A stretch of DNA of 64,000 nucleotides from Candidatus Eiseniibacteriota bacterium. GTDB taxonomy: Bacteria > Eisenbacteria > RBG-16-71-46 > CAIMUX01 > VGJL01. Positions 15,319 through 63,220 of the stretch are shown here, piece after piece (the first letter of the stretch is position 1; each line of letters begins with the position of its first letter). The stretch is taken from NCBI GenBank assembly GCA_963792585.1, contig CAWBWI010000001.1, forward strand, positions 1,728,001 to 1,792,000. The letters are read 5' to 3'. Under the pieces are notes generated by a model that did not search any database, was not told the DNA's origin, and was given only the letters and a program-made list of their open reading frames with translations. The translations under genes and the position numbers were made by a program.

Positions 15319-16056
15319 CTAGCGGTAGTTGTCCCTGATCCGGCCCCAGGTCGTGTTCCGCGTCGGAACGGGCGGGCACGGATTCGGGTCACACGGGATG
15401 CCGTCGCCTTGATAAACGCCACCGGCCCTTACGCAGGCCTCTTCGTAGAGGATCTCGCAGTGGCCATCCTCCTCGAAGCAGCACGCGCCCGTCGGCAGAG
15501 GTCGAATGATCCCGCACCGCCGCCCCTCCGTCGGAACGAAACCCTCTTCCTCGGGATCGAATGTGCTCAGCGGGCCATTGTAGAGAATCGAATTCAAAAG
15601 CCCGTCCAAGACGATCAGGTGGTCTTCCACGACATCGGCCTGTGCGATAAGGGCGGGGTACTCAATCGAGTAGAAGATCTGCGCGCAGACCTCCACCTCG
15701 AGCGGAATGTTGTCGACCCCCCAATCAAGTGTCGCACCGCTCGGCAGGGTGACCGACCAATGCCAATCCGTTGGTGTCGGATCGCAGACGAGCGAATCCA
15801 CGTCGTAGGTGTTGCCTGGACCGGTCGAGGTCCCACCGATGAAAGTGACGCATCCGATGTCACCACCGTTGAGCGTCCAGAGACCTTCGCTCCACTGGAG
15901 GATCTCGATGTCTCCGAAAACCTCATCGCGCACCCGCGCCGGATCAGCGCTCGCGGTCGACACGAAGGTGAGAATCGCCACGCACGCGGCGACCGTCAGA
16001 AGTACTCGCGCGAGTCGAGAATGGGCGTGACTGCTCCAACGATAACAATCCTTCAT
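15319..16056 (-). CDS. Secreted protein with a GACC Cys-rich module and a C-terminal TWGRIRDNYR tail
   Basis: GAGGAGGAG RBS, signal peptide, GACCFEEDGHC...GGVYQGDGIPCDPNPC. Confidence 0.85.
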   Translation of the reverse strand: MKDCYRWSSHAHSRLARVLLTVAACVAILTFVSTASADPARVRDEVFGDIEILQWSEGLWTLNGGDIGCVTFIGGTSTGPGNTYDVDSLVCDPTPTDWHWSVTLPSGATLDWGVDNIPLEVEVCAQIFYSIEYPALIAQADVVEDHLIVLDGLLNSILYNGPLSTFDPEEEGFVPTEGRRCGIIRPLPTGACCFEEDGHCEILYEEACVRAGGVYQGDGIPCDPNPCPPVPTRNTTWGRIRDNYR

Positions 16057-27494: not shown

Positions 27495-28028
27495 TTAACG
27501 ATAGATCGTGCGGATCCGCCCCCAGGTGGTCGCCCGATTCCCACCGCCATTGCCGTGGTCGTCCGGCACGTCCGCCACGACGCAAGGGTTCGGGTGGCAG
27601 TAGGTCTCACCGGGGATCCATGTGCCCCCAATCAAGGCACAGTCCTCGCCGCAACCGACGAGCCGGCAGCTGCCGTCGGGAAGGCAGCAGGCGATGGGAC
27701 AGCACGCCGGACATGGGTTGGGATCGCAGGACGTCATGCCCTGCATCCACGTGCAGACACCCGGATTCTGGACACATTCCGCAAATGTCGTGATCGAGCA
27801 CTCGCCGTAGTGCGAACAACAGACCCCCAATCCGGTCTGGCATGGATCAGGGAGACAAGGAGTCCCGTCTCCCCAGTAGTTTCCTCCCGCCGCGGCACAC
27901 TCCTCCCACGTGTACAACACACAGGAGTTGTCCTGTAGGCAACACGCTCCAGGGATCGCCGAGGCTAGGGGACATACGAACATCGCGAGGATCACGGCCA
28001 CGCCGGATGCGACGATGCAGCGGCTCAT
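27495..28028 (-). CDS. Small secreted Cys-rich protein: three GACC-type repeats plus a TWGRIRTIYR tail
   Basis: AAGGAGGA RBS, signal peptide, three CC-x5-C...C-x-P-[ND]-PC repeats. Confidence 0.85.
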   Translation of the reverse strand: MSRCIVASGVAVILAMFVCPLASAIPGACCLQDNSCVLYTWEECAAAGGNYWGDGTPCLPDPCQTGLGVCCSHYGECSITTFAECVQNPGVCTWMQGMTSCDPNPCPACCPIACCLPDGSCRLVGCGEDCALIGGTWIPGETYCHPNPCVVADVPDDHGNGGGNRATTWGRIRTIYR

Positions 28029-28341
28029 AACATCCTCCTTTCCGACGGCGTCGAGTTTACGCCCTGAGGGCGTGCTTGGACAGCCGAATCACGCCCGTGT
28101 GCGCAGCACCCCCATGCGGGTCGACAGACCCCGTCGGCACTGCCGTATCCCCAACTCATCCACCCCTAGCTCCCGCAAACTCGTTCCGCCGACGGGCGAT
28201 CACCGATCCACTCATCCCCGTGCTTGACACCCCCGGATGGGAGGATAGGCTTGATGTCGGGGATTCCAGAACGTCTTGCTGGCCGCACTCTCGGAAGCGG
28301 CGTGCGATCGATCGGTGCTACCGGGGTTGGTCGGAGGCCGC

Positions 28342-40627: not shown

Positions 40628-43600
40628 ATGATGCTCCCAGCAGGCTTCCGCATAGTGTCGCCTCGTGTCGAAAACCCATGCGGCGCGAGTTGGCCCACCC
40701 GTCTCCCAAGCACCTTTCGGGTCAGCCTGTTCCTCCTCCTCGCGATCACCCTCCTCGTCTCTTGTGGCGAGGATGGGCCGTCCAAGCCCGAGCCTGAGGT
40801 CAAGTGCGCGACACCAATCTTCGCTCCCCTACCCGGGACGTTCGCGGCGGCGACGAATGTGACGATTACCTGCGCCACGGTCGGTGCCACAATTCGCTAC
40901 ACGACCGACGGAACGACGCCGGTGGAGGCCTCGCCGCTCTACACCCATCCCGTGGCCATCGCGGCGACCTCCACGCTCGAGGCCCGCGCATGGCGGGACG
41001 GCTTCGACCCGAGCGATGTGGCGACGGGGATCTACACGATCACCGGTGGCTCGTGCAGCATCGGCGTGACGGCTCCAAACGGTGGGGAGCAGTGGATCCT
41101 CGGCACCGCGCAGACGATCGCCTGGGGCAGCAACCAGTGCGGCCCGAACGTGAAGATCGAATTGCTGCGCGAGGGCGCCTCCTGCCTGACGATCGCCGAG
41201 AGTACACCCAACGATGGGGATTACGAATGGACCGCGGCTCGCTGCGGAGGCGTCTCCTTCGACTACGAGGTCCGCGTCACGGATCTGACGAGCGGCTTCC
41301 AGGACACGAGCAATGACCCGTTCGAGATCGTGGAGAGCTGCGCGGTCCAGGTTCTCTCCCCCAACGGCGGCGAGACGTGGACGGTCGGGACCTCGCACGA
41401 CATCGCCTGGGCGTCGCGCGAAGCATGTGGAACCGACGTTCGCATCGAGCTTCTCCTCGCCGGTATCCCGTGCGACACCCTGGCCGAGGCGACGGAGAAC
41501 GACGGCAGCTTCGCCTGGGTCGCGGCGCGATGCGGCACGCCGACGAGCGGGTATTCCGTTCGCGTGACCGACCTGGATAGCGGCGTCACCGACCCGGGGG
41601 ACGCATCCTTCTCGCTCCCCGATCCCGCCTGCGACATCTCGGTCCTCGCACCCAACGGCGGAGAGTCGTGGGACGAGGGATCCGCGCAGGAAATCCGCTG
41701 GCGGGCGCTGGACTGCGGCCCGTCCGTGCGGATCGAAATGCTGCGCGCCGGAGATCTGTGCAAGACCATCGCGGACAGCACGGAGAATGACGGGAGCTTC
41801 GCGTGGACCGCGGATCGCTGCGGTTCGGTGAACGACGGCTACACGGTTCGCGTGACGGATCGCGCATCCTCTACAAACGACCTCAGCGACGACGCCTTCT
41901 CGATCCCGGGCCCTCCCTGCACGCTGACGATCCTCTCCCCCAACGGCGGCGAGAGCTGGGAAGAAGGGACGGATCACGAGATTACTTGGACATCCAACGC
42001 GTGCTCCCCCCCGCTCATCATCGATCTGTTTCACGGCGGGGAGCTCTGCCGAAGGCTCTCGGTCGGTGAGCCAACCGAGGGCACCTTCACCTGGAGAGTC
42101 GAGCGGTGCGGGGGCGCGACGGAAGGCTACACGATCCGCCTGGCAGGCTCGGGCGCAGTCGACACATGCGACGCGCCGTTCGCGATCACCCCGGCCGCGG
42201 TGCCGTGCGTGCTGACGGTCACCGCGCCGGAAGCGGGCGAGATCCTCTGGAAGGGCTCACGGGAGACGATCCGGTGGACGGCCTCGAACTGCGGCTCGCT
42301 CGCCCGTCTCGATTTGCTCTGCAATGGAGTCGTCTGTGGCCAGATCACTGACGGCACCGGCAACGCGGGTTTCTATGAGTGGCCGGTGTTCGATTGCTGC
42401 GCGGACACATGCGCCCACTCGATCCGCGTGACCGACCTCGCAAGCAACAATCCGGCGGAGAGCGCAACGTTCTGCATCCGCACCTGCACGGTGGCCGTTA
42501 CGTCGCCGGCCGGTCAAGACCAATGGACCGCGGGTGAAGAGCATACGATCGCCTGGAGCACGGAGGGGTGCGGGTCCGAGGTCCGGATCGAGCTGTGGAC
42601 GGAAGAGGAATCGCTCTGCCGCACGATCGCCGAGCGGACGGACAACGATGGCTCCTTCCCGTGGACCGTCGCATCGTGCCTCTACGACAACACGGGATAC
42701 CAGGTCGTCGTCGCCGATTTGACCAGCGGCTCTGCGGCGGCCTCGGAAGGATTCACCATCCTCGAACCGAATCCCTGCATCCTGAACGTCCTCTCCCCCA
42801 ACGGCGGCGAGCGGTGGCCGGCCGGATCGGTCCACCCGATCACCTGGAGCCGATCTGCCTGCGGCGCGAACGTCCGCATCGATCTCGTCCGGCAGGGGGC
42901 GGAATGCCTGACCCTGGCCGCGAGCTCGCCGAACTCGGGCTCGTTCGAGTGGACGGTCGCCGCCTGCGGGCCCGATTCGACCGACTACCGGATCGCGATC
43001 ACCGACATCGAATACGGCGTCTCGGATCAGAGCGATGCGGTCTTCGCGATTCCATCCTGTGAGATCGCTCTCGATGCGCCCGTGGGCGGCGAGCGCTGGC
43101 CCGACGGCTCCGAGCAGATGATCGCCTGGCATTCCTCCGGCGCGTGCGACGGCCCGGTGCGGATCGATCTGCGCTGCAACGATCAGGACTGCCGGACCAT
43201 CGCCGCGAGCACGGAAGACGACGGCGCCTTCGCATGGACGGTCGACGCCTGCTGCACGGCCCCTTGCGACCACCGGATCCGCGTCACGAACCTCGCTACG
43301 GGATCGTCCGTGGAAAGCCCGGCGGTCTTCTGCATCTGCCCGCCGTGCGCTCCAGCCGTCGTCGCACCGAACGGCGGCGAGAAATGGAAGGCAGGGACGG
43401 TGCGCGCGATCACTTGGAGCGCGGCGGACTGCGGCGCGTCGGTGACGATCGATTTGCTGCGGAACGGCCTGCCATGTCACACGATCGCCTCGGCAGCGCC
43501 AAACAACGGGTCCTACTCATGGACGGTCGAGGGCTGCGCGGGAGAACCCAATGGATACGCGATCCGCGTCACCGGCGTCTGCGACGCTGCCGACGAGAGC

Positions 43601-45508
43601 GACGCGACCTTCACGATTCCGGAGTGCCTGGTGAGCGTGACCTCGCCCGCTCCCGGCGTCACGTGGGATCCGGGAGGCGCGCACGACATCACGTGGACAT
43701 CGAGCGCGTGTGGCGGAACGGTACGGATCGAACTCCTGAAGGGCGGCAGCCTCTGTTCCACGCTCGCGGAGGAGACACCCGACGACGGGATCTTCAACTG
43801 GACCGCGCAAACATGCGCGGGCGGCAACGGTTGCGACTACCTGATCCGCATCGTCGATATCGAGACCGGCCGCGCCGGCGAGATGGACGGCTTCTTCTGC
43901 ATCTGCCCTCCCTGTCCGCCGATCGTGGTCTCCCCGAACGGCGGCGAAAGCTGGCAAGAGGGGTCGGGGTTCGACATCGTCTGGACGCCGTCCTCCTGCG
44001 ACACGGCGGTCAAGGTCGAACTGACCCGGGACGGGTCGGTCTGCGACACGATCAGCGCGGGCACGCCCAACGACGGGCTGTTCCACTGGACGGCCGCACG
44101 CTGCGGCACCGCGACGGCCGGCTACCGCGTCCTCGTTACCGGGCTCGACTGCGGGCAGAGCGATTCCGGCAACGCGGACTTCGCGATCCCGCCGATGCCG
44201 TGCGCGCTCGAACTCACCTCGCCGGACGGAGGCGAAAGCTGGAGCCGCAACACCACCCACCTGATCCGCTGGGATACGGCAGGAGACTGTGGCGACCACG
44301 TGAAGATCGAACTCCTCCACAGCGGTGTTCCGTGCCTGACCATCGCGGAGTCGACGTCCAACGACGAGACCTATAGCTGGGCCGCGGCGACCTGCGGTGA
44401 CGACGAAACGGACTATGCGATCCGCTTGACGGAACTGACCGGGAACAAGACGAGCCAGAGCGCAGCACCATTCTCGATTCCGATATGCAGGCTGACGGTC
44501 ACGGCCCCCAATGGCGGCGAGACCTGGGTGGCGGAAACGCAGCAGACGATCACATGGGATCCGAACGCTGCATGTGGATCGACGGTTCGGATCGAGCTCC
44601 TGCGCGGCGGGATCTCATGCGAAACCATCGATGGAGCGGCGCCAAACACGGGCACCTACTCCTGGATTGCGCAGAACTGTAACGGCCATGCCGACGGCTA
44701 CCGCATTCGCGTGACCGACACGGCCACCGGCGCGACCGACGCGAGCGACGCCGATCTGCAGATTCCAACTCCCCCGTGCTCCATCCTCGTGACCGCCCCC
44801 AACGGCGGCGAAAACTGGACTGAGGGCTCCGTGCACTCGATCACCTGGACCCCGGCACACTGCGGCGAGACCGTGCAACTCGAGCTGGTGAAGGATGGCT
44901 CCCCATGCGGTGTGATCGCGGCTTCCGCACCAAATACGGGCAGCTTCTCATGGAACGTGGAGTCGTGCGTCGGCACGCCCGGCGCATGGAAGATTCGGGT
45001 GACCGATCTCGCCTCGCAGGCATTCGACGAGAGCAACCTGGCATTCCAGATCGCGACATCGCCCGACGCGTACATCCTCCCGCAGAACCTCTCCGTCTGC
45101 AGGGGCACGCAAAACGTCGAGATCCTCGTCCGGGGAAGGAATAGTCAAGCCCTCCAGGGCTACGGGGTGAGTCTCTGCTACGATACGGCCGTGTTCATCT
45201 GCGCAGGGATCTCCCTTGCCGATACGCGCGGCAGCGGCGCCTCCTACTTCGAGAACGATTGCGGATCCGGCTGCGCACGCGCGGGCGCGATCATCTCCAA
45301 CGCCTGTCCGCCCCAGGTCGACGCGGGGGACGGTCCGCTCCTGAAACTCACGCTGCACGTGAAGGCAGATGCCCCGCTCGGGACCACGACCCTCGATCTG
45401 AGAAACGTCGATCCCTCGACCAATACCATGGCGAGATGCGGCGGCGCGGGGATCGATCCTACCCTGCTCGACGGCCGGGTCACGATCTGCGGAGGGACAT
45501 CCCGATGA
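40628..45508 (+). CDS. Very large lipoprotein: CHB_HEX_C/Fn3-associated domain, 14 Cys-rich PNGGExW Ig-like repeats and a C-terminal cohesin-like domain
   Basis: LVSC lipobox, IRYTTDGTTP, 14 counted repeats of about 95 aa, C-terminal YGVSLCYD...GPLLKLTLHVKADAPLGTT...DGRVTI. Exact start uncertain. Confidence 0.85.
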   Translation: MMLPAGFRIVSPRVENPCGASWPTRLPSTFRVSLFLLLAITLLVSCGEDGPSKPEPEVKCATPIFAPLPGTFAAATNVTITCATVGATIRYTTDGTTPVEASPLYTHPVAIAATSTLEARAWRDGFDPSDVATGIYTITGGSCSIGVTAPNGGEQWILGTAQTIAWGSNQCGPNVKIELLREGASCLTIAESTPNDGDYEWTAARCGGVSFDYEVRVTDLTSGFQDTSNDPFEIVESCAVQVLSPNGGETWTVGTSHDIAWASREACGTDVRIELLLAGIPCDTLAEATENDGSFAWVAARCGTPTSGYSVRVTDLDSGVTDPGDASFSLPDPACDISVLAPNGGESWDEGSAQEIRWRALDCGPSVRIEMLRAGDLCKTIADSTENDGSFAWTADRCGSVNDGYTVRVTDRASSTNDLSDDAFSIPGPPCTLTILSPNGGESWEEGTDHEITWTSNACSPPLIIDLFHGGELCRRLSVGEPTEGTFTWRVERCGGATEGYTIRLAGSGAVDTCDAPFAITPAAVPCVLTVTAPEAGEILWKGSRETIRWTASNCGSLARLDLLCNGVVCGQITDGTGNAGFYEWPVFDCCADTCAHSIRVTDLASNNPAESATFCIRTCTVAVTSPAGQDQWTAGEEHTIAWSTEGCGSEVRIELWTEEESLCRTIAERTDNDGSFPWTVASCLYDNTGYQVVVADLTSGSAAASEGFTILEPNPCILNVLSPNGGERWPAGSVHPITWSRSACGANVRIDLVRQGAECLTLAASSPNSGSFEWTVAACGPDSTDYRIAITDIEYGVSDQSDAVFAIPSCEIALDAPVGGERWPDGSEQMIAWHSSGACDGPVRIDLRCNDQDCRTIAASTEDDGAFAWTVDACCTAPCDHRIRVTNLATGSSVESPAVFCICPPCAPAVVAPNGGEKWKAGTVRAITWSAADCGASVTIDLLRNGLPCHTIASAAPNNGSYSWTVEGCAGEPNGYAIRVTGVCDAADESDATFTIPECLVSVTSPAPGVTWDPGGAHDITWTSSACGGTVRIELLKGGSLCSTLAEETPDDGIFNWTAQTCAGGNGCDYLIRIVDIETGRAGEMDGFFCICPPCPPIVVSPNGGESWQEGSGFDIVWTPSSCDTAVKVELTRDGSVCDTISAGTPNDGLFHWTAARCGTATAGYRVLVTGLDCGQSDSGNADFAIPPMPCALELTSPDGGESWSRNTTHLIRWDTAGDCGDHVKIELLHSGVPCLTIAESTSNDETYSWAAATCGDDETDYAIRLTELTGNKTSQSAAPFSIPICRLTVTAPNGGETWVAETQQTITWDPNAACGSTVRIELLRGGISCETIDGAAPNTGTYSWIAQNCNGHADGYRIRVTDTATGATDASDADLQIPTPPCSILVTAPNGGENWTEGSVHSITWTPAHCGETVQLELVKDGSPCGVIAASAPNTGSFSWNVESCVGTPGAWKIRVTDLASQAFDESNLAFQIATSPDAYILPQNLSVCRGTQNVEILVRGRNSQALQGYGVSLCYDTAVFICAGISLADTRGSGASYFENDCGSGCARAGAIISNACPPQVDAGDGPLLKLTLHVKADAPLGTTTLDLRNVDPSTNTMARCGGAGIDPTLLDGRVTICGGTSR

Positions 45509-48500
45509 GAACGATCCTCGCGTTCATGACCCTGCTCCTCCTCGGCGGAACCCAGGTCCACGCCGGCCGCAACGCCAACGGCGCGATGATCGTCCACACG
45601 AGCGATGCGGTCGTTTTCACGTCGACCGGCGACTACTGCGGCGCCCTGTACAACAACCCCGGCACCTGCGGGGCGGCCGGAACACGGACCGACAAGTCGG
45701 AGGACGATCCAGCGGTCATCTGGTTCGTCGCGGCCTTCCTGAACACAGCGAGCCCCGCGGTGACGGGGGTCCAGTTCGGGATCGAGCACAATCTGCCGCC
45801 CGGCGCGGGGGCCTTTGCGAAGTTCGGCGCCTGCGGGACCGGCGTCCTCGAGTTGCCGGAAGACGGATGGCCGGAGACGGCGTTCGGAAACACCATCACC
45901 TTCAGTAGCGCATCGACCTCGAAGCTCTTCCCTTTCTACTACTTTGCGGCCTATGGATTCGCGGGCGCGTACGTCGGGACCGGCGTGAGCCCGAACCTGG
46001 GGCACGCTTTGTTCACCGACGATGCCAACCCGCCCGGGGAAGACAACTGCTACAATTTCGGCCGGGTCCTCTGGCACCAGACCGGATTCAACGAGTGCCC
46101 CACCACACCGACATGCCAGGTCACGGTCACCTCGCCCAACGGCGGGGAGATCTGGACTGAAGGATCGGTGCACACGATCACCTGGAGTTCATCGGGTTGC
46201 GAGGGTCCCGTCCAGATCGACCTGATCCGGACCGACGGCCTGGCCTGCGAGACGATTGCCGTCGATGCGCCGAACTCCGGCGCGTACGGCTGGGTCGCCC
46301 AGAATTGCCTGGGAGGAAGCGGAAGTTACAAGATCCGTATCACGGATCTGCGCAGCGGCCGGATGGACGAGAGCAACCAGAGCTTCTTCGTTCCCGACGC
46401 CCCCGCCTGCCTGATCACCGTCATCGCCCCCGACGGCGGCGAGACGATCGACCAGGGAGGCTCATACGAGATCACATGGGGATCGACGCTGTGCGGTGCG
46501 AATGTGAAGATCGAACTGATCCAATACGGCAGTGTTTGCGCAACGCTCTCTGCATCGACCCCGAACGACGGCAGCTTCCTCTGGACGGCGCAGCCGTGCG
46601 CGGGGATGTGCGGGTACAAGATCCGCGTCACCGACTTCAGCTCGGGTGCGGCCGACGAGTCGGCCGAGGAGTTCTGCTTCCGCCCCTGCGCGCCGCACGT
46701 GGACGCGCCCAACGGGGGCGAGGAGTGGATCGCAGCGACCGAGAACGAGATCCGGTGGTCACCCGGCGCTTGCGGCGCGACCGCGAAGATCGAACTTCTC
46801 CGCAATGGGATCGTCTGCTCGACAATCGCGGCCGGCACTCCCAACGACGGAAGCTTTCTCTGGAGCGCCCAGCCGTGCGCGGGCGCGTCCGACGGCTACC
46901 GGATCCGGATCACGGACCTCTCCGGCGACGGGAAGGACGAGAGCGACGCCACCTTCCGGATCCTCTCATGCGAACTCGCCGTAACGGCCCCCAACGGGGG
47001 CGAGAGCTGGCAAGCCGAGAGCGTGCAGACGGTCACCTGGACGGCGAATCATTGCGGGGGCGACGTCCGGATCGAGCTCCTGCGCAGCGGCGTGGTCTGT
47101 GCCACGCTTGCCGCGAGCACTCCGAACGACGGGAGCTTCCTCTGGACGGTGGCCCAATGCGCGGGAAACCGGACCGACTACCGGATCCGGATTACCGACT
47201 TGCGCGGGGGCCTGCTGGACGAGAGCGACGCGGTGTTCAGCATCCCCGATCCCGCATGCACCATCCATGTGACGGCCCCGAACGAGGGCGAGAGCTGGAC
47301 CGAAGGTCTCCCGCACGACATCACATGGACTTCCGCCCACTGCGGCGGGACGGTGAAGATCGAACTCCTCTTGAACAACACGGTCTGCGCAACCATCAGC
47401 GCGAGCACCCCTGACGATGGGCTCGTGACGTGGACGGCGCAACGATGCGGCTCGGCGACGACGGGTTACAAGATCCGCATCACCGATCTGACCTTCGCCT
47501 CCGTGGATGAGAGCGACGTCGCCTTCTCGATTCCCGCCTGCCAGCTCACAATCACATCCCCGAGCGGCGGGAGTTGGGCCCCCGGATCGAGCCACTCGAT
47601 CGTTTGGACTTCCCAGGCATGCGGGAGCGCCGTCAGGATCGACCTGCTCCGCAACGGCTCCGTGTGCACGACGATCTCCGCATCCACCGCGAACGACGGC
47701 GAGTTCCTATGGACCGCCCAGCAGTGCACGTACGGCGTGAGTGGGTACAGGATCCGACTGACTGACCTCGCGACCGGGGAAACCGGCCAGAGCGAGTTGT
47801 TCTGCATCAGTTGCGACGACTTCTTCGCCATACCGGCGTCGACCGAGCTGACCGTCGGTCACACAAGTCTCACGATCCCGATCGAGGGCGGCAACGACAC
47901 GTCCATCCGCGCCTACTCGATCCGCGTCTGCTTCGATCCCGCCGTCCTCGAATGCACCGACCTCTCCCTTGCGGGCACGCGCGGAGCGGGGGCGTCGAAC
48001 TTCACGAAGTCGATCAGCGCCTCGTGCGCGACCGGCACCGTCACATTCTCACCGACATGCCCCCCACAGATCGCTCCCGGCACCGGTACCTACCTGAATT
48101 TGACCGTCAACGTGAAGCCGACCGCACCCCTCGGTCCGACGACGCTGACGTTCACCGGCGGGATCCCACCGTCGACGTCGATGACGACGTGCGCCGGAAC
48201 GCTGATCGGTCTCTCCCTGCAGAGCGGATCGATCACGATCGTCCCCGAGAAGTTCCGCCGAGGCGACGACAACGCGGACGGCCTCTGGGACATTGCCGAC
48301 CCGGTCTATTGCCTGGACTCTCAGTACGGCGGAGGCCCGCTTCCTCCGTGCCGAGACGCAGGCGATTTCGACGACTCGGGGCGATATGACATCGCCGACT
48401 GCGTGGCGAATCTTTGCTGGCAGTTCGGCAATTGCAGCGCTCCGCCGCCCCCCTTCGCGTCATGCGGGGCCGACCCCACGACCGGAGACGCGCTCGGCTG

Positions 48501-49257
48501 CGCTCACTACGCCGCCTGCGGTAACGAGATCCCGACCGCCCTGAGCGCGCCCGAGACGAATCCCGGCTGCCGGATCTCCCTCGGCGCGATCTCCTATGCA
48601 GGATGGGACTCGCTCATCGTGCCGATTCGCTTGACGAGTCCCATGGACATCGTAGCGCTGCAGTACACGATCGCCTACGACCCGGCCACGCTGACCTTCA
48701 CGGGTCTCGACCGGTCAGAGGTCCCGTTCGACTTCTATGCGGCGCGACCCGATCCACAGGGGGGTCGAGCGCTCGCGGGCGCCGTCCCCGACCTGGGCCT
48801 CACCGTTCCGCTCGCGCCGGGAGAGCACGGGATCGGGCGGCTGGTCTTCGTGGTTTCCGATCCGGCCCGGCTCGAGGCCGGACGGATCGACATCGGCGAT
48901 GTGCGCGTGATCGGCGTCGATCGGGTCGCACGGGCTGGTGAAGGAGCGAGCGTGACGGCGGCCGGAGCGCCCGCGGCGGCAAGCGCACCCCGACTTCGGG
49001 TGGCCAATCCGTATCGGCCGGGCGATGCGATTCTTCTCGATCTCCCCGAAGCTGCGCTCGCGAACGTCGCCGTATTCAACGTCTCGGGTCAGAAGGTGCG
49101 CACGATCTTCGGCGATGAGGATCTCCGCCGCGGCCGCCACTCCCTCCGGTGGGACGGGAAGACGGAATCGGGCGGGGACGCCGGCACGGGAATCTACTAC
49201 ATCCGCGCGATGGTCGGGCCGCGCATGGTGGGTCGCAAGATCACGTTGATTCGCTGA
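45505..49257 (+). CDS. Large secreted protein: conserved N-terminal domain, 6 PNGGExW repeats, cohesin-like, dockerin-like, second cohesin-like and FlgD-Ig domains
   Basis: ATGA overlap with the upstream gene, GGAGGG RBS, signal peptide; dockerin-like FRRGDDNADGLWDIAD...AGDFDDSGRYDIAD; WDGKTESG...GIYYIR. Confidence 0.85.
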   Translation: MRTILAFMTLLLLGGTQVHAGRNANGAMIVHTSDAVVFTSTGDYCGALYNNPGTCGAAGTRTDKSEDDPAVIWFVAAFLNTASPAVTGVQFGIEHNLPPGAGAFAKFGACGTGVLELPEDGWPETAFGNTITFSSASTSKLFPFYYFAAYGFAGAYVGTGVSPNLGHALFTDDANPPGEDNCYNFGRVLWHQTGFNECPTTPTCQVTVTSPNGGEIWTEGSVHTITWSSSGCEGPVQIDLIRTDGLACETIAVDAPNSGAYGWVAQNCLGGSGSYKIRITDLRSGRMDESNQSFFVPDAPACLITVIAPDGGETIDQGGSYEITWGSTLCGANVKIELIQYGSVCATLSASTPNDGSFLWTAQPCAGMCGYKIRVTDFSSGAADESAEEFCFRPCAPHVDAPNGGEEWIAATENEIRWSPGACGATAKIELLRNGIVCSTIAAGTPNDGSFLWSAQPCAGASDGYRIRITDLSGDGKDESDATFRILSCELAVTAPNGGESWQAESVQTVTWTANHCGGDVRIELLRSGVVCATLAASTPNDGSFLWTVAQCAGNRTDYRIRITDLRGGLLDESDAVFSIPDPACTIHVTAPNEGESWTEGLPHDITWTSAHCGGTVKIELLLNNTVCATISASTPDDGLVTWTAQRCGSATTGYKIRITDLTFASVDESDVAFSIPACQLTITSPSGGSWAPGSSHSIVWTSQACGSAVRIDLLRNGSVCTTISASTANDGEFLWTAQQCTYGVSGYRIRLTDLATGETGQSELFCISCDDFFAIPASTELTVGHTSLTIPIEGGNDTSIRAYSIRVCFDPAVLECTDLSLAGTRGAGASNFTKSISASCATGTVTFSPTCPPQIAPGTGTYLNLTVNVKPTAPLGPTTLTFTGGIPPSTSMTTCAGTLIGLSLQSGSITIVPEKFRRGDDNADGLWDIADPVYCLDSQYGGGPLPPCRDAGDFDDSGRYDIADCVANLCWQFGNCSAPPPPFASCGADPTTGDALGCAHYAACGNEIPTALSAPETNPGCRISLGAISYAGWDSLIVPIRLTSPMDIVALQYTIAYDPATLTFTGLDRSEVPFDFYAARPDPQGGRALAGAVPDLGLTVPLAPGEHGIGRLVFVVSDPARLEAGRIDIGDVRVIGVDRVARAGEGASVTAAGAPAAASAPRLRVANPYRPGDAILLDLPEAALANVAVFNVSGQKVRTIFGDEDLRRGRHSLRWDGKTESGGDAGTGIYYIRAMVGPRMVGRKITLIR

Positions 49258-49333: not shown

Positions 49334-49912
49334 TCAGCGGTAGAGAGTCCGGACCCTCCCCCAGCTGACCACCACTGTCGGATCCACGTCGCTCGTCGGG
49401 AGCAGGATCAAGTCGAGGCAATCCAGGCGTGTGCGCATCGAACCATCGCCTCCATCGATGCTCCACTTCACGACGTAGGCGCCGGGGTCGAGAGCGATCG
49501 GTTCCGTCGACTGGACCCAGTCGTAGGCGGCGCTCTCTCAGCTCACACCGGATCCGGGGACCGTGACGAGCGTTACGCTCGCGACGGGTGTCTCCAAGGG
49601 TTCACTCAGGTAGTCCATCCGGAAGGTGCGGACGTAGCCGATCGCCCCCGCGCTTCGGAGTGCGGTCAAGAACACCGCCCTCGAACTGAGCGAGAGGTGG
49701 AGCTTGATCCACTCCCCATCGCAGTCGACACCATCCACGCCGTATCCCCCGGATGCCTCCGAGCAGGCCACGACTCCAATGGCCATACCGCAATCGGCGA
49801 TCTGACCATTGCTGTAGAAGCTCTCGGCCTCGATTCGCTGCGTTGTCCCCGAGGAGGTGACAGGAGAGAGAAGGAGAAGGATGACCCATGCGGGCCGAAG
49901 GTGGCGTGCCAT
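49334..49912 (-). CDS. Secreted CBM6/CBM35-like beta-sandwich protein with an in-frame UGA (candidate selenocysteine at codon 125) and a SWGRVRTLYR tail
   Basis: GGAGG RBS, signal peptide, IEAE...GEW motifs; frame stays open for 67 codons after the TGA at 49538-49540 and ends in the tail shared with four other proteins in the window. Confidence 0.75.
49490..49537 (-). promoter_or_regulatory. Putative bacterial SECIS element
   Basis: Directly 3' of the UGA: lower stem GAGAGCG/CGCUCUC, upper stem CGACUG/CAGUCG, apical loop GGUC at +21 to +24. Confidence 0.7.
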
Positions 49913-50015
49913 ACATACCTCCGCGAAAGAGGATAGCACGTCCGTCAAGCCGTCGCCATGGTGTCAGGATGCGAAGCTCGGTGAGAGGCGGGCGGCAACC
50001 GGCGAATCGAGCAGA

Positions 50016-54584: not shown

Positions 54585-55439
54585 CTTCGAAGGTCTCCAA
54601 GTTTCCGGTCAGCCGCGCACTATCCAGGGACAGGGATCAGCTGGAATACGGAGCCGCGGTCGATTCGGTTGCGTGGGTCCATAGGCGGCTCCGCTTCCGG
54701 GCGACGCCGCCGCCCAGGAATCCGCGGCCGCCCAATCGAAACGAGCCCGGGGCGCTCGGGCCCCCGCTCGAGCCGGTTTGGCCGATCCCTTGTCGCTTCC
54801 ATGGACCCCATCCGGCAACATGATGGGAAAAGGCGCGCTTCCATCCTAATCACTGGAAGCCGAACGCTCGACTGTAATCCTCCATGACCGGGAGGACCAA
54901 ACGGAATCCCCCCTGTGGCTTCCACGGGCCAATCCCCATTGGTAGGGAGGCAGATACGTCTGCCCCAGGTGCCAGGTCGACCGGAATGGCGTGTCAGCGC
55001 CCGGTGGACCCGGTCCCTGGTGGCGGCGCGTAAGTGCCGTCCTTCCACCCCGGCGGAGGGCTGCTCGTCGATGCCCCGCCACATGCCAGGCTGCACACGG
55101 GAGCTCATCCACCGGCGGGGCCGTTGCCGTGTCAGGCGTCCCTTCCCTCGCTCACCTTGGAGCAATCCAAGGCCCGTCACCCGGACCGGACTCCAGCGGT
55201 TGGGTCCTCAGATCGCCTGTTGGACGGCGGCGGGGATCCGGTTGCCTCCACTCGGGATTATGGCAACGCTCTTCCACCATGTAGAATCGTTTCCCGGTTG
55301 GACGGCCCGAGGTCGCAATGGCGGTGGTTGCCGCCATTGCAGTTCCCACCGTAGTGGCGCCGAGATCCAACCAGTGCCGTGAACGCGGTGACGCGCGCTC
55401 ACGACCCGTCCAGCGTCCATGATTGGAGGTGGTTTATCG

Positions 55440-56264
55440 ATGAAGATCGGCGCGATCGCTCTCCTGTTCCTATCGATCGCGGTCAGCGCCTTTGCTGGGT
55501 CCGACCGGGTCCAGGCTCCTGGCCCCGTGGACCTACCCGGGGCGCGCGACGCATTCTACTGCCAGACGACATCCATTGACTGGAACGCCTTGAACGCGTC
55601 CAGCGGTTTCAGCAGCGAGTTGGTGGACGACATCCCCGATGCCTACGCAGGTTACTCAGTGAGTGACGTCACGTTCTACGTTGCGGAATGGAGCGGCGGC
55701 TGGACGCCATTTACCAGCATGACGGTCAACTTCTACACCGCGTCGTGCCCGCCGCACCAGACCGCGGACTTTTCATTCGAGGTGCCCTATTGGATGTGCA
55801 CGGTTGAGCAGGTCTACGCGGGCAACTGGTTCGTCTACAGCGTCCTCGTTCCTCTGCCTACAGTGATCACGATTGAAACGATGACGTCGATCGGTGGAGT
55901 CGTGAACCAAGACTGGGGCCAGAATCCCCCGTACTGCGGTCTCGTGATCTGCGACGCAGTTGCCGACTGCGGTGGCTACGTTGCTGGCGACTACTGGGGT
56001 TATCCTCGTTGGACCCCCCTCTCGTCCATTATGGGATACGACGTGGACGTCGCGTACTGCCTCAGCTATACAGGTATAGGCGGCGGCGGTACGTACGGTG
56101 CGTGCTGCTTCGCAGATGACCACTGCGAAATGCGGAGCGGGGAAGGCTGCGGGAGCGACGGTGGCCAGTTCCAGGGGGACGGCACATCCTGCGACCCGAA
56201 CCCCTGCCTCCCGAGCCCGGCGAAGAGCACGACCTGGGGTCAGATCAGGGGCACCTATCGGTAG
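55440..56264 (+). CDS. Secreted protein with a GACC module and a TWGQIRGTYR tail
   Basis: GGAGG RBS, signal peptide, ELVDDIP domain, GACCFADDHC...QGDGTSCDPNPC. Confidence 0.85.
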   Translation: MKIGAIALLFLSIAVSAFAGSDRVQAPGPVDLPGARDAFYCQTTSIDWNALNASSGFSSELVDDIPDAYAGYSVSDVTFYVAEWSGGWTPFTSMTVNFYTASCPPHQTADFSFEVPYWMCTVEQVYAGNWFVYSVLVPLPTVITIETMTSIGGVVNQDWGQNPPYCGLVICDAVADCGGYVAGDYWGYPRWTPLSSIMGYDVDVAYCLSYTGIGGGGTYGACCFADDHCEMRSGEGCGSDGGQFQGDGTSCDPNPCLPSPAKSTTWGQIRGTYR

Positions 56265-62093: not shown

Positions 62094-63089
62094 CTACCGG
62101 AACATGAACTTGATCGCGCCCCAGGAGTTGCTCCGAGTAGGAACAGAACCGCAGTACCAGCGGACGCCGACCGAGTCGGGGCTAGGCGTGCAACGATTGC
62201 CCGGCCCTGACCACGAGGCGTTCGTGTATTGCCCGTCGGAACCATCGATGCTGAAGCGGGTGTTGCAGGCGCTCTCTGTGGCGTGGGCACAGCGTCGCTC
62301 ATTCTCGTCAATGGCGAGCGAATAGCAGCACGCGGCGCAAACGATCGCCCCGCACACCGTGTTGTCCCCCGCATAGATGCCCTCATAGACACCGTAGGCA
62401 TCTTCGCAAGTCTCCTGGTTGACTTCCTGAACGCAGCCGCCCCAACTCGTGCAGCAGGCTCCGGTGGGGAGCGGGATGAAGACGGGGCAGATGTTGCTGC
62501 CCTCGACACCCCACCGGACAACTCCGAAGTCGGTGATCAAGTCCTCACGAGGAGGGCTTCCATTGTCGACGAAGACCGCGCGGCCGTCCCCGGGGTAGAC
62601 CGTGGTACCGAACTCGTTCGACTGCCCGTCCTTCCCGAGTACGGCGAACCAGTAGAAGGGCCAGATGTGGTCGGTCCGCGCCTCCAGGTATCCCACGAGG
62701 TTCCCTCGCCCGACATCCGGAAAGCCATCCTCCGGAAGCTCCAAGGAGACACCCGGGCCACACGCCGCACTCGCAACTACAAGACCCTGTCCGGCCGGGA
62801 GATTGGTCTCGATTCCGAACTGGACCGCCATCACCTCGGGTGAGGTCGTTGGGTCGAACGCGGCAAGAAACCAGATGATGGCTTCATCGGTCTCAGGGGC
62901 TTTGTGAGTGGTCGTCACGAGTTCTTCGCACGTCATCGGAAGCGCGTTCGCGCAATAGTCGGTCGAGGTGTAGTAGACCGCGCTGTCGTCCGTGTGGACC
63001 AGCATCGCTCCATCTCTGTTCCTGCCGGCGAGTGCGGGGGCGCTACAGACGGCACACATTGCCAGGGCCACAGGCAATAGCGGTTTCAT
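62094..63089 (-). CDS. Secreted protein: GRNxxGAMxVHT domain, GACC modules and a SWGAIKFMFR tail
   Basis: Signal peptide; N-terminal domain aligns by eye with that of the 45505 gene. Confidence 0.85.
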   Translation of the reverse strand: MKPLLPVALAMCAVCSAPALAGRNRDGAMLVHTDDSAVYYTSTDYCANALPMTCEELVTTTHKAPETDEAIIWFLAAFDPTTSPEVMAVQFGIETNLPAGQGLVVASAACGPGVSLELPEDGFPDVGRGNLVGYLEARTDHIWPFYWFAVLGKDGQSNEFGTTVYPGDGRAVFVDNGSPPREDLITDFGVVRWGVEGSNICPVFIPLPTGACCTSWGGCVQEVNQETCEDAYGVYEGIYAGDNTVCGAIVCAACCYSLAIDENERRCAHATESACNTRFSIDGSDGQYTNASWSGPGNRCTPSPDSVGVRWYCGSVPTRSNSWGAIKFMFR

Positions 63090-63220
63090 CGGGGAGGTCC
63101 CCCTTCTTCGCCGTCAATGATAGACCGTCCGGTCCGGCTTTCGATGGGTGACTTGCGTGGCGTTGGTCCTCAAGGGACGTTGTCCTGCGCCAAGCACCGG
63201 TCTCGACGGCGTCGTCGCCG

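Follow-up and report, generated by a model that had tools for sequence, protein, structure and literature searches.

A candidate exported selenoprotein family with a predicted CBM6-like fold in Candidatus Eisenbacteria

Results

The gene described here lies on the minus strand at positions 49334 to 49912 of the window (the whole 64,000-nt stretch of DNA analyzed), a strand that the preliminary description of the locus had left out. Its ATG starts at 49912, 4 nt downstream of a Shine-Dalgarno-like GGAGGT (49917..49922, minus strand), and codon 125 is an in-frame TGA (49540-49538), after which the frame runs on for 67 codons, as first described, to a second TGA that is the true stop (49336-49334). 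The resulting read-through protein of 192 aa, with a predicted selenocysteine (Sec) at codon 125, contains a likely signal peptide at residues about 1-22 (49847..49912), judged by eye from its basic start and hydrophobic core and from similar starts in relatives, followed by a predicted CBM6/35/36-like beta-sandwich at residues about 24-172 (49397..49843), whose last strands are encoded behind the UGA, and a C-terminal WG tail (49337..49381). Alongside Sec125, it has the four cysteines originally counted (Cys41, Cys50, Cys64, and Cys165). Database entries list the protein in its 124-aa form only, and a search for a promoter-like site upstream of the gene found none. The gene sits downstream of a MacB-type ABC transporter operon and converges with two large, Cys-rich secreted proteins (40628-45508 and 45259-49257, plus strand) that carry Kre9/KNH-like Ig repeats and cohesin-like and FlgD-Ig ends; the neighbor comparison revealed no conserved gene link around this copy.

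The genome that contains the window (5.4 Mb, 84% complete) encodes the full machinery that the preliminary description had proposed to look for, namely, tRNA-Sec, SelA, SelB, and SelD, all over their cut-offs, and the SelD gene contains a single in-frame TGA of its own. Almost the whole phylum uses Sec, with SelA found in 184 of 206 genomes (116/121 of the high-quality ones). Among the 21 genomes that have the family, 18 encode SelA, while the remaining three (G001, G142, and G146) are drafts that lack SelA but have tRNA-Sec and, in two cases, also SelB. A recoding of UGA to Trp or Gly was rejected because RF2 is present and TGA is the stop in commonest use (55% of 1342 long-ORF stops), including that of the gene itself, in agreement with the earlier view that the UGA does not reflect global recoding.

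The same genome (G000) has a rich candidate selenoproteome (C6:900851, C6:968110, C1:242644, C3:1081711, C2:244034, C1:1644338, C1:1373758, C1:1449638, C4:299833, and C3:350819). It includes two Omp28-like secreted proteins, one of them with a type IX secretion system (T9SS) tail, a TUGYCR thioredoxin (NF053656), and TlpA-like proteins, together with BCP, UshA-like, AhpD, rhodanese, and HesB-like genes that were recognized by motif only. Separately, a MetE-like gene (cobalamin-independent methionine synthase; G000:C5:179139-180287, minus strand; loci L150 and L154-L161) has an in-frame TGA (RRTFM-U-ATL) that is conserved in 9 of the 41 genomes searched, with a conserved ACCCGC-loop-GCGGG hairpin downstream in the eight loci read. 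The MetE family is absent from the 119-family table in the part of PMC13188914 available to us, and this gene is a candidate for a second new selenoprotein family. Elsewhere in the genome, one EF-Tu-like match is split into three frames (G000:C3:1187450-1188582), possibly through assembly frameshifts, and another is whole (C3:1203655).

The in-frame UGA recurs well beyond the window. A paralog in the same genome (G000:C5) is 38% identical and has TGA at the same column, and one contig from run X1, which is possibly the source sample and consists of contigs rather than raw reads, spans 49367-49657 and repeats the TGA, with a single differing letter at 49374. On these two grounds an assembly slip was rejected, the contig serving as an approximation to the raw-read check proposed earlier. 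Among 61 relatives, 17 of 18 matches contain one TGA. Across the 206 genomes of the phylum (Candidatus Eisenbacteria), we found 26 full-domain matches (E below 1e-15) in 21 genomes: 23 with TGA, two with Cys (G019 and G146), and one without the region (G062). One count in these tallies comes from G079, which is unpublished and on which no claim depends. In all, 34 genomes matched; 13 of them were left out, as their matches were weak and C-terminal, with E above 1e-6. The 23 TGA genes come from 19 genomes, and the matches with TGA at the column share about 25-45% identity with the window's protein.

A profile search of 1.84 billion representatives returned 299 clusters at E up to 0.001. Of the 148 that were classed among the best 150, 114 stop just before the column, mostly in G-x-G-x-x; these were classed from their protein ends, with stop codons seen for a minority. 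The others comprise 16 full-length clusters, all with Cys at the column, 2 ordinary CBM6 proteins, 6 C-terminal pieces, and 10 of other kinds. None of the homologs has Trp at the column, a residue that the preliminary description, in the event that no hairpin were conserved with it, would have taken as the mark of a simple nonsense mutation; they have UGA or Cys instead. Further, coding is conserved past the UGA, with G144, D164, and the WG tail nearly invariant in the family alignment, so that both the UGA/Cys alignment at codon 125 and the downstream conservation put forward as checks were found. A quick tree on 101 columns, which fixes neither the root nor the order of Sec and Cys, indicates at least two label changes, with one Cys pair nested among Sec forms and carrying a relic motif.

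Several loci add detail to the family's history. The G062 copy (L080, G062:C2:284303) has an internal deletion of the Sec loop and last strands, with signal peptide and tail kept; two metagenome contigs contain three consecutive Sec copies (L092/L093/L104); and in G019 (L065), a Cys copy lies directly upstream of a Sec copy. L062 of G011 is likewise one of the tandem paralogs. Because scans with a DNA pattern select for the hairpin, their loci were left out of the hairpin counts below. In the second such scan, 3 of 25 loci lacked the family domain. Pattern matches labeled Alphaproteobacteria, Acidobacteriota (L046), Flavobacteriales, Paeniglutamicibacter, and cyanobacterium were rejected, as they contained no new family domain, and a locus labeled Terriglobales (L051) was rejected as a case of spread beyond the phylum, as its genome gives the same matches as G142, of the window's own class.

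The 48 nt that follow the UGA (49490..49537, minus strand) fold as first described, into a 7-bp lower stem, two 2-bp steps, and a 6-bp upper stem with a GGUC loop at +21 to +24. By itself, the folding energy gives this hairpin little support. Relative to shuffles, the z-score was -2.28 for the hand-picked 48-mer, -0.89 to -1.16 for three longer windows, and +0.39 for a fifth; hence, the case depends on comparison. Only the upper stem is conserved across relatives, while the 7-bp lower stem is not. The protein search yielded 23 TGA genes, and 22 of them have this core (49508..49523 in the window's gene, with the loop at 49517-49514) behind the TGA in the form [C/G]GACUG-N4-CAGUC[G/C], always with a G-first loop of 4 nt that starts at +21 in 16 genes and at +18 in 6, and at +24 in some of the pattern-found genes. 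By comparison, of the 2274 TGA ends of long GC3-rich frames in the genome, only 4 are followed by a 6-bp stem whose 4-nt loop begins with G and lies at +18 to +24.

The core encodes Y-D-W-V-Q-S in the window's protein, and its codons appear frozen. In 19 non-redundant genes, D131 is GAC in 19/19, Q134 is CAG in 19/19, Y130 is TAC in 18/18, and S135 is TCG in 18/19, while the top-codon share at invariant sites outside the hairpin is 0.32 at G61, 0.32 at G144, and 0.58 at D164. F81 (16/17) and C50 (16/18), two-codon sites away from the hairpin, come close to fixation as well, and such sites alone therefore prove little. There is, in addition, one compensatory pair, in which Tyr TAC goes with Ser TCG (19/19) and Trp TGG with Ser TCC (3/3), the three Trp genes being kin from one family. 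Finally, D-W-x-Q-S is kept in none of the 17 Cys forms examined (the partial P0017, left out of this count, has Y-D-W-V-S-S), and both Cys genes for which DNA was at hand have a damaged stem or loop. Taken together, the comparison argues that the hairpin is selected as RNA, showing both the conservation and the covariation that the preliminary description proposed to look for, and that the Y-D-W-V-Q-S-type residue motif is likely imposed by the RNA.

The window's hairpin (4-nt GGUC loop, 6-bp stem, 20-nt spacing, -20.7 kcal/mol) falls within the bacterial SECIS (bSECIS) model as set out in the accessible part of PMC13188914 (a 3-9 nt loop with G in its first two positions and a 4-16 bp stem, 16-37 nt from the UGA, with a minimum free energy of at most -7.5). 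Its GGUC loop is common to another candidate selenoprotein of the same genome. No Rfam SECIS family matched the hairpin at E up to 10. A divergent Ig-domain lipoprotein (L081, G035:C7:29336-29758) has the column TGA without the family hairpin and groups with a deep Cys clade; it may represent a separate gain of Sec with another SECIS.

The model of the read-through domain, built from 141 sequences (mean pLDDT 94), is a galactose-binding-like beta-sandwich, as in CBM6 and CBM35, whose last strands come from behind the UGA. It thereby supports the earlier suggestion that a CBM6/35 sandwich is complete only with read-through, as both halves are needed. In the structure comparison, the model came closest to modules of CBM6, CBM36, and CBM35 and to domain III of Cry toxins, at Z 15-16 and rmsd 2.0-2.4 A. 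Neither the protein nor 15 members matched Pfam PF03422 or PF16990, and sequence searches of Pfam, NCBIfam, and PDB placed the protein in no family. The family domains retain E28 (48/51), E30 (48/51, with D in 3), and D164 (51/51), which we take to be likely structural calcium ligands, and Trp68 is kept in 38/51.

The domains have lost the sugar contacts of cleft A. Mapping through two chained alignments (the family to the CBM6 repeat of P0155, and that repeat to 1uxz), which is a sequence mapping rather than one of coordinates, places Gly61 at Tyr33, Ala129 at Trp92, Arg162 at Asn121, and Cys50 at Thr22, two residues from Glu20. A five-residue insertion that bears the Sec lies just before Ala129, the Trp92 position. 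In the part of PMC10284105 that we could access, the cleft-A ligand contacts are given as Tyr34, Trp92, and Asn120 (Clostridium module) and Glu20 (Cellvibrio module). The family has instead Gly61 (51/51), Ala129 behind the Sec insertion, and Arg162, the last in an Arg162-Leu-Asp164 stretch (49421..49429, minus strand) with Arg or Lys in 45/51 domains at the CBM6 Asn120/121 position. By this mapping, the sugar cleft would be without its aromatics, and Sec125, Cys50, and Arg162 would lie there in their place.

The distribution of cysteines suggests which residue partners Sec125. Of 51 domains, 32 have Cys80 together with Cys140 and 19, among them the window's protein, have neither, and this all-or-none pattern marks the two as an ordinary disulfide. 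With that disulfide accounted for, Cys50 (49763..49765, minus strand) and Sec/Cys125 remain to pair. Cys50 occurs in 49/51 full domains, and the two domains without it are the only two with U-x-C. Since these belong to one clade of 11 rows in the tree, the swap counts as one event; we read it as a resolving Cys that moved, which would make Sec125 and Cys50 a Sec-Cys pair. Some ordinary CBM6s (5fui and 8zvk) also carry a Cys where the family has Cys50. The window's protein further has Cys41 and Cys64, likely an extra disulfide, as all three domains with Cys41 have Cys64.

Family members start with signal-peptide-like or lipoprotein-like segments, judged by eye. The domain is also carried by Fn3, Ig, and Cys-rich repeat scaffolds, and up to three Sec genes can stand together in a tandem array. 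The tail, [ST]WG..[KR]..[YF], ends 110 frames genome-wide and four other ORFs of the window, as the preliminary description had recognized for four secreted proteins; in the narrower form [ST]WG.[IVL][KR]..[YF], these ORFs are 15319-16056, 27495-28088, 55392-56264, and 62094-63113. In two WG-tail proteins tested, no NCBIfam model covered the tail, and our literature search found no description of it. A T9SS type A domain (TIGR04183), absent from the window's protein, takes the place of the WG tail in several relatives and scored over the cut-off in both of those tested. This exchange within one family makes the WG tail a likely, so far undescribed, sorting signal.

A Pfam scan of 43 neighbor ORFs, from 140 listed, revealed one recurring neighbor, a head-to-head gene with an AhpC/TSA domain (TlpA/ResA-like, CPxC). 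In the window's genome, this gene is single-copy and adjoins the C5 paralog (G000:C5:104991-106853, minus strand; also L021:7992-9854), not the window's own copy. Its model (pLDDT 90) combines a thioredoxin domain with a large barrel that matches the outer-membrane porins OpdL, OpdQ, chitoporin, and AlgE (E about 1e-8, with low TM-scores) and has one disordered loop (residues 284-296) at a conserved Cys motif, which is of the CGC/CGVC type in 45 of 55 members. An atlas look-alike of the barrel, DUF6029 (score 0.95), is a lead only. The fusion, of which our literature search found no description, occurs in at least 58 clusters, with more distant CxEC forms in family f3 and others.

Close orthologs of this thioredoxin-porin gene (E below 1e-79) were found in 16 of the 206 genomes, 15 of which have the selenoprotein family, with the two genes adjacent in 9. 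These genomes include kin and are not independent, so the p-value for the co-occurrence overstates the association. No close ortholog was identified in six of the 21 genomes that have the family: G035, G059, G062, and G063 (93-96% complete) gave none, G032 has a distant form only, and G142 is 54% complete. Conversely, G015 has the thioredoxin-porin gene without the selenoprotein family. The exceptions (G035, G059, G062, G063, G032, and G015) count against an obligate pair.

Discussion

Our results indicate that codon 125, an in-frame UGA, is very likely read as Sec. Of the conditions that the preliminary description named as refuting, each was checked directly or by approximation, and none came out against this view. 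The best reading of the family, from comparison of its sequences, is a new group of exported selenoproteins in which a Sec-Cys pair is redox-active. As the best explanation of the whole, we propose, with a little more confidence than doubt, an exported protein with a predicted CBM6-like fold, in which the former sugar cleft contains a redox-active Sec125-Cys50 pair. The account begins with the UGA, the hairpin, the Sec machinery, and the UGA/Cys interchange, which can be read directly from the genomes. SelB would almost certainly bind the G-first loop, leading to Sec insertion; without read-through, the chain would lose its last strands and sorting tail. The signal peptide is predicted to direct export, and the tail to direct sorting to the surface or outside. 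There, Sec125 and Cys50 would probably form a reversible selenenylsulfide, with Arg162 near the selenolate, as the alignments suggest. Whether this pair would then serve as an extracytoplasmic thiol-type redox site, in peroxide scavenging or in disulfide exchange on a Cys-rich surface proteome, is to us an evenly balanced proposition. That the linked thioredoxin-porin protein re-reduces the pair is a more speculative step, and one we would sooner doubt than assume. The family protein contains no thioredoxin or peroxidase motif. The preliminary description had raised the possibility of a non-oxidoreductase selenoprotein, a view that finds no support here, as both the pairing logic of Cys50 and Sec125 and the linked gene point to redox chemistry.

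The strongest competitor accepts Sec insertion and differs in chemistry. Specifically, Sec125 and Cys50 could bind a soft metal or metalloid (Cu(I), Hg, Ag, or As), so that the protein would be a secreted scavenger and the Cys-loop porin an uptake or export channel. An open cleft with a Sec/Cys pair, as mapped by alignment, would suit such a role, as would the CGC/CGVC-type motifs of the porin loop, and the clade that lacks Cys50 often has D-x-H there, its two readable members having U-x-C, which looks like a metal site. There is also precedent: about 20% of the known families have a predicted role in binding atoms or moieties, for the most part metals, according to the available portion of PMC13188914, and SaoB and SaoX are proposed metal-binding exported selenoproteins in the section of the Haft and Gwadz preprint that we could consult. 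However, the 43 neighbor ORFs include no metal transporter, efflux, or metal-regulator gene, apart from one HlyD/CusB-type gene beside the truncated G062 copy, most members offer two ligands only, and the periplasmic domain of the partner is a disulfide reductase. We regard metal binding as unlikely.

Somewhat less probable again is a purely structural Sec. Here, a low-potential Se-S bridge would hold the cleft loop fixed in reducing sediments, and the domain would continue to bind a glycan or some other ligand. The CBM6/35 fold with its likely calcium residues (E28, E30, and D164), the display on Fn3, Ig, and Cys-rich repeat scaffolds, and the retention of Trp68 are all in keeping with a binding module, and an atypical CBM6 without cleft-A aromatics is known (PMC10284105, in the part available). 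Yet the other disulfide, Cys80-Cys140, uses plain Cys, so a mere bridge needs no Sec; the cleft-A Tyr is Gly in every one of the 51 domains; and no carbohydrate enzyme or glycoside hydrolase domain was found in the 7 fusion proteins scanned.

Readings without Sec fare much worse. A near-cognate tRNA could read the UGA as Cys or Trp, or the UGA could be a leaky regulatory stop, and it is true that the column is Cys in relatives and that a tail placed behind the UGA would let read-through gate export. Such decoding is very improbable given the full Sec machinery, a bSECIS-conforming hairpin whose GGUC loop recurs in E. coli fdhF and in another candidate of the genome, and the decay of that hairpin in Cys genes. 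A true stop, whether from nonsense mutation or assembly error, would fit the 124-aa database form but can be virtually dismissed, as the same TGA in 23 genes of 19 genomes refutes an assembly error or a one-off mutation, residues are conserved and codons frozen behind it, and the fold needs both halves.

The preferred reading, that of an exported protein with a redox-active Sec125-Cys50 pair, describes a large hidden family, since for 114 of the best 150 clusters the stored sequence breaks off immediately ahead of the Sec. None of 141 members matched a selenoprotein model of NCBIfam 20.0 at E 0.1, while other candidate selenoproteins of the genome, used as a control, do match such models. Table 1 of PMC13188914 lists 119 selenoprotein families, none with a CBM fold in the part available to us; for those that lack an NCBIfam or Pfam model, the comparison was limited to name and motif. 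The words "carbohydrate," "CBM," and "secreted" do not occur in the available text of that article, nor "carbohydrate" or "Eisenbacteria" in the available text of PMC13326102 and PMC12013277. Our literature search found no Eisenbacteria selenoprotein and no Sec-bearing carbohydrate-binding module, with an unnamed mention possible in supplements, in Haft and Tolstoy 2025, or in Deng et al. 2026. The fold is thus new among listed selenoproteins and would represent a sugar-binding scaffold that has likely been turned into a Sec/Cys site. The family also points to the undescribed WG tail as an element that swaps with the T9SS sorting domain.

Compared with known systems, the hairpin most resembles the E. 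coli fdhF SECIS, which likewise lies in the coding region, with a short upper stem and a G-first GGUC loop at a similar distance from the UGA. The preliminary description had correctly noted GGUC in the fdhF loop, which is at +19 to +22, whereas the family loop starts at +18, +21, or +24. Unlike fdhF and the consensus SECIS, the family has no conserved lower stem, and its stem fixes six residues (Y/W-D-W-V/A/S-Q-S). It thereby offers a clean case in which an RNA signal appears to dictate six protein residues and relaxes once Sec reverts to Cys.

Among carbohydrate-binding modules (PF03422 and the CBM6/CBM35/CBM36 structures 2cdo, 1uxz, 7ay3, and 3zm8), the beta-sandwich superposes on 2cdo (Z 16.1, rmsd 2.3 A over 134 residues). 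The family also resembles these modules by profile (hhalign 93.8%) and shares their IEAE start, GEW motif, and final Asp. Because Cry toxin domain III reaches a comparable score (Z 16.0), no function follows from the fold alone. The family differs from CBM6, CBM35, and CBM36 in the change of the cleft-A Tyr to Gly, the non-aromatic Trp92 position, the change of Asn to Arg, the lack of a Pfam match, and the lack of carbohydrate enzymes in the fusions scanned. The initial label of a CBM-like protein holds for the fold, but with the cleft-A sugar-binding residues lost, CBM is not a suitable name for the protein.

Export of selenoproteins is itself already known, as Omp28-related proteins (NF045500, "GOS_C"), SaoB (NF040727), SaoX (NF040735), and a TonB-dependent receptor (NF049945) are listed, and the family resembles them in being bacterial and, by prediction, exported. 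Of the original proposal of a new secreted selenoprotein, what is new is therefore the family and the fold, not secretion. Those proteins have thioredoxin, substrate-binding, or barrel folds with U-x-x-C, CU, or CxxU motifs, whereas the window's family has a predicted jelly-roll fold, a G-x-G-x-x-U motif, and a likely partner Cys 75 residues away, and none of its 141 members matched them.

The DsbD/ScsB-TlpA pathways are envelope reduction pathways. In the accounts of them available to us, they share with the linked gene a CxxC domain of the TlpA/ResA type that is attached to a membrane domain in which a Cys pair is mobile; the membrane part of the linked protein differs in being a predicted outer-membrane porin-like barrel rather than an inner-membrane helical domain. 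We tentatively suggest, as a possibility that we consider less than probable, that Eisenbacteria operate a thiol-redox relay across the outer membrane, from the periplasmic TlpA-like CxxC to the mobile CxC/CxxC loop in its own barrel and on to the secreted selenoprotein, itself built on a repurposed carbohydrate-binding module. With the linked gene, it becomes possible to test by what route diderm bacteria might supply reducing power outside the outer membrane. If true, such a relay would be of a new kind, mirroring DsbD at the outer membrane and ending with a selenoenzyme outside the cell.
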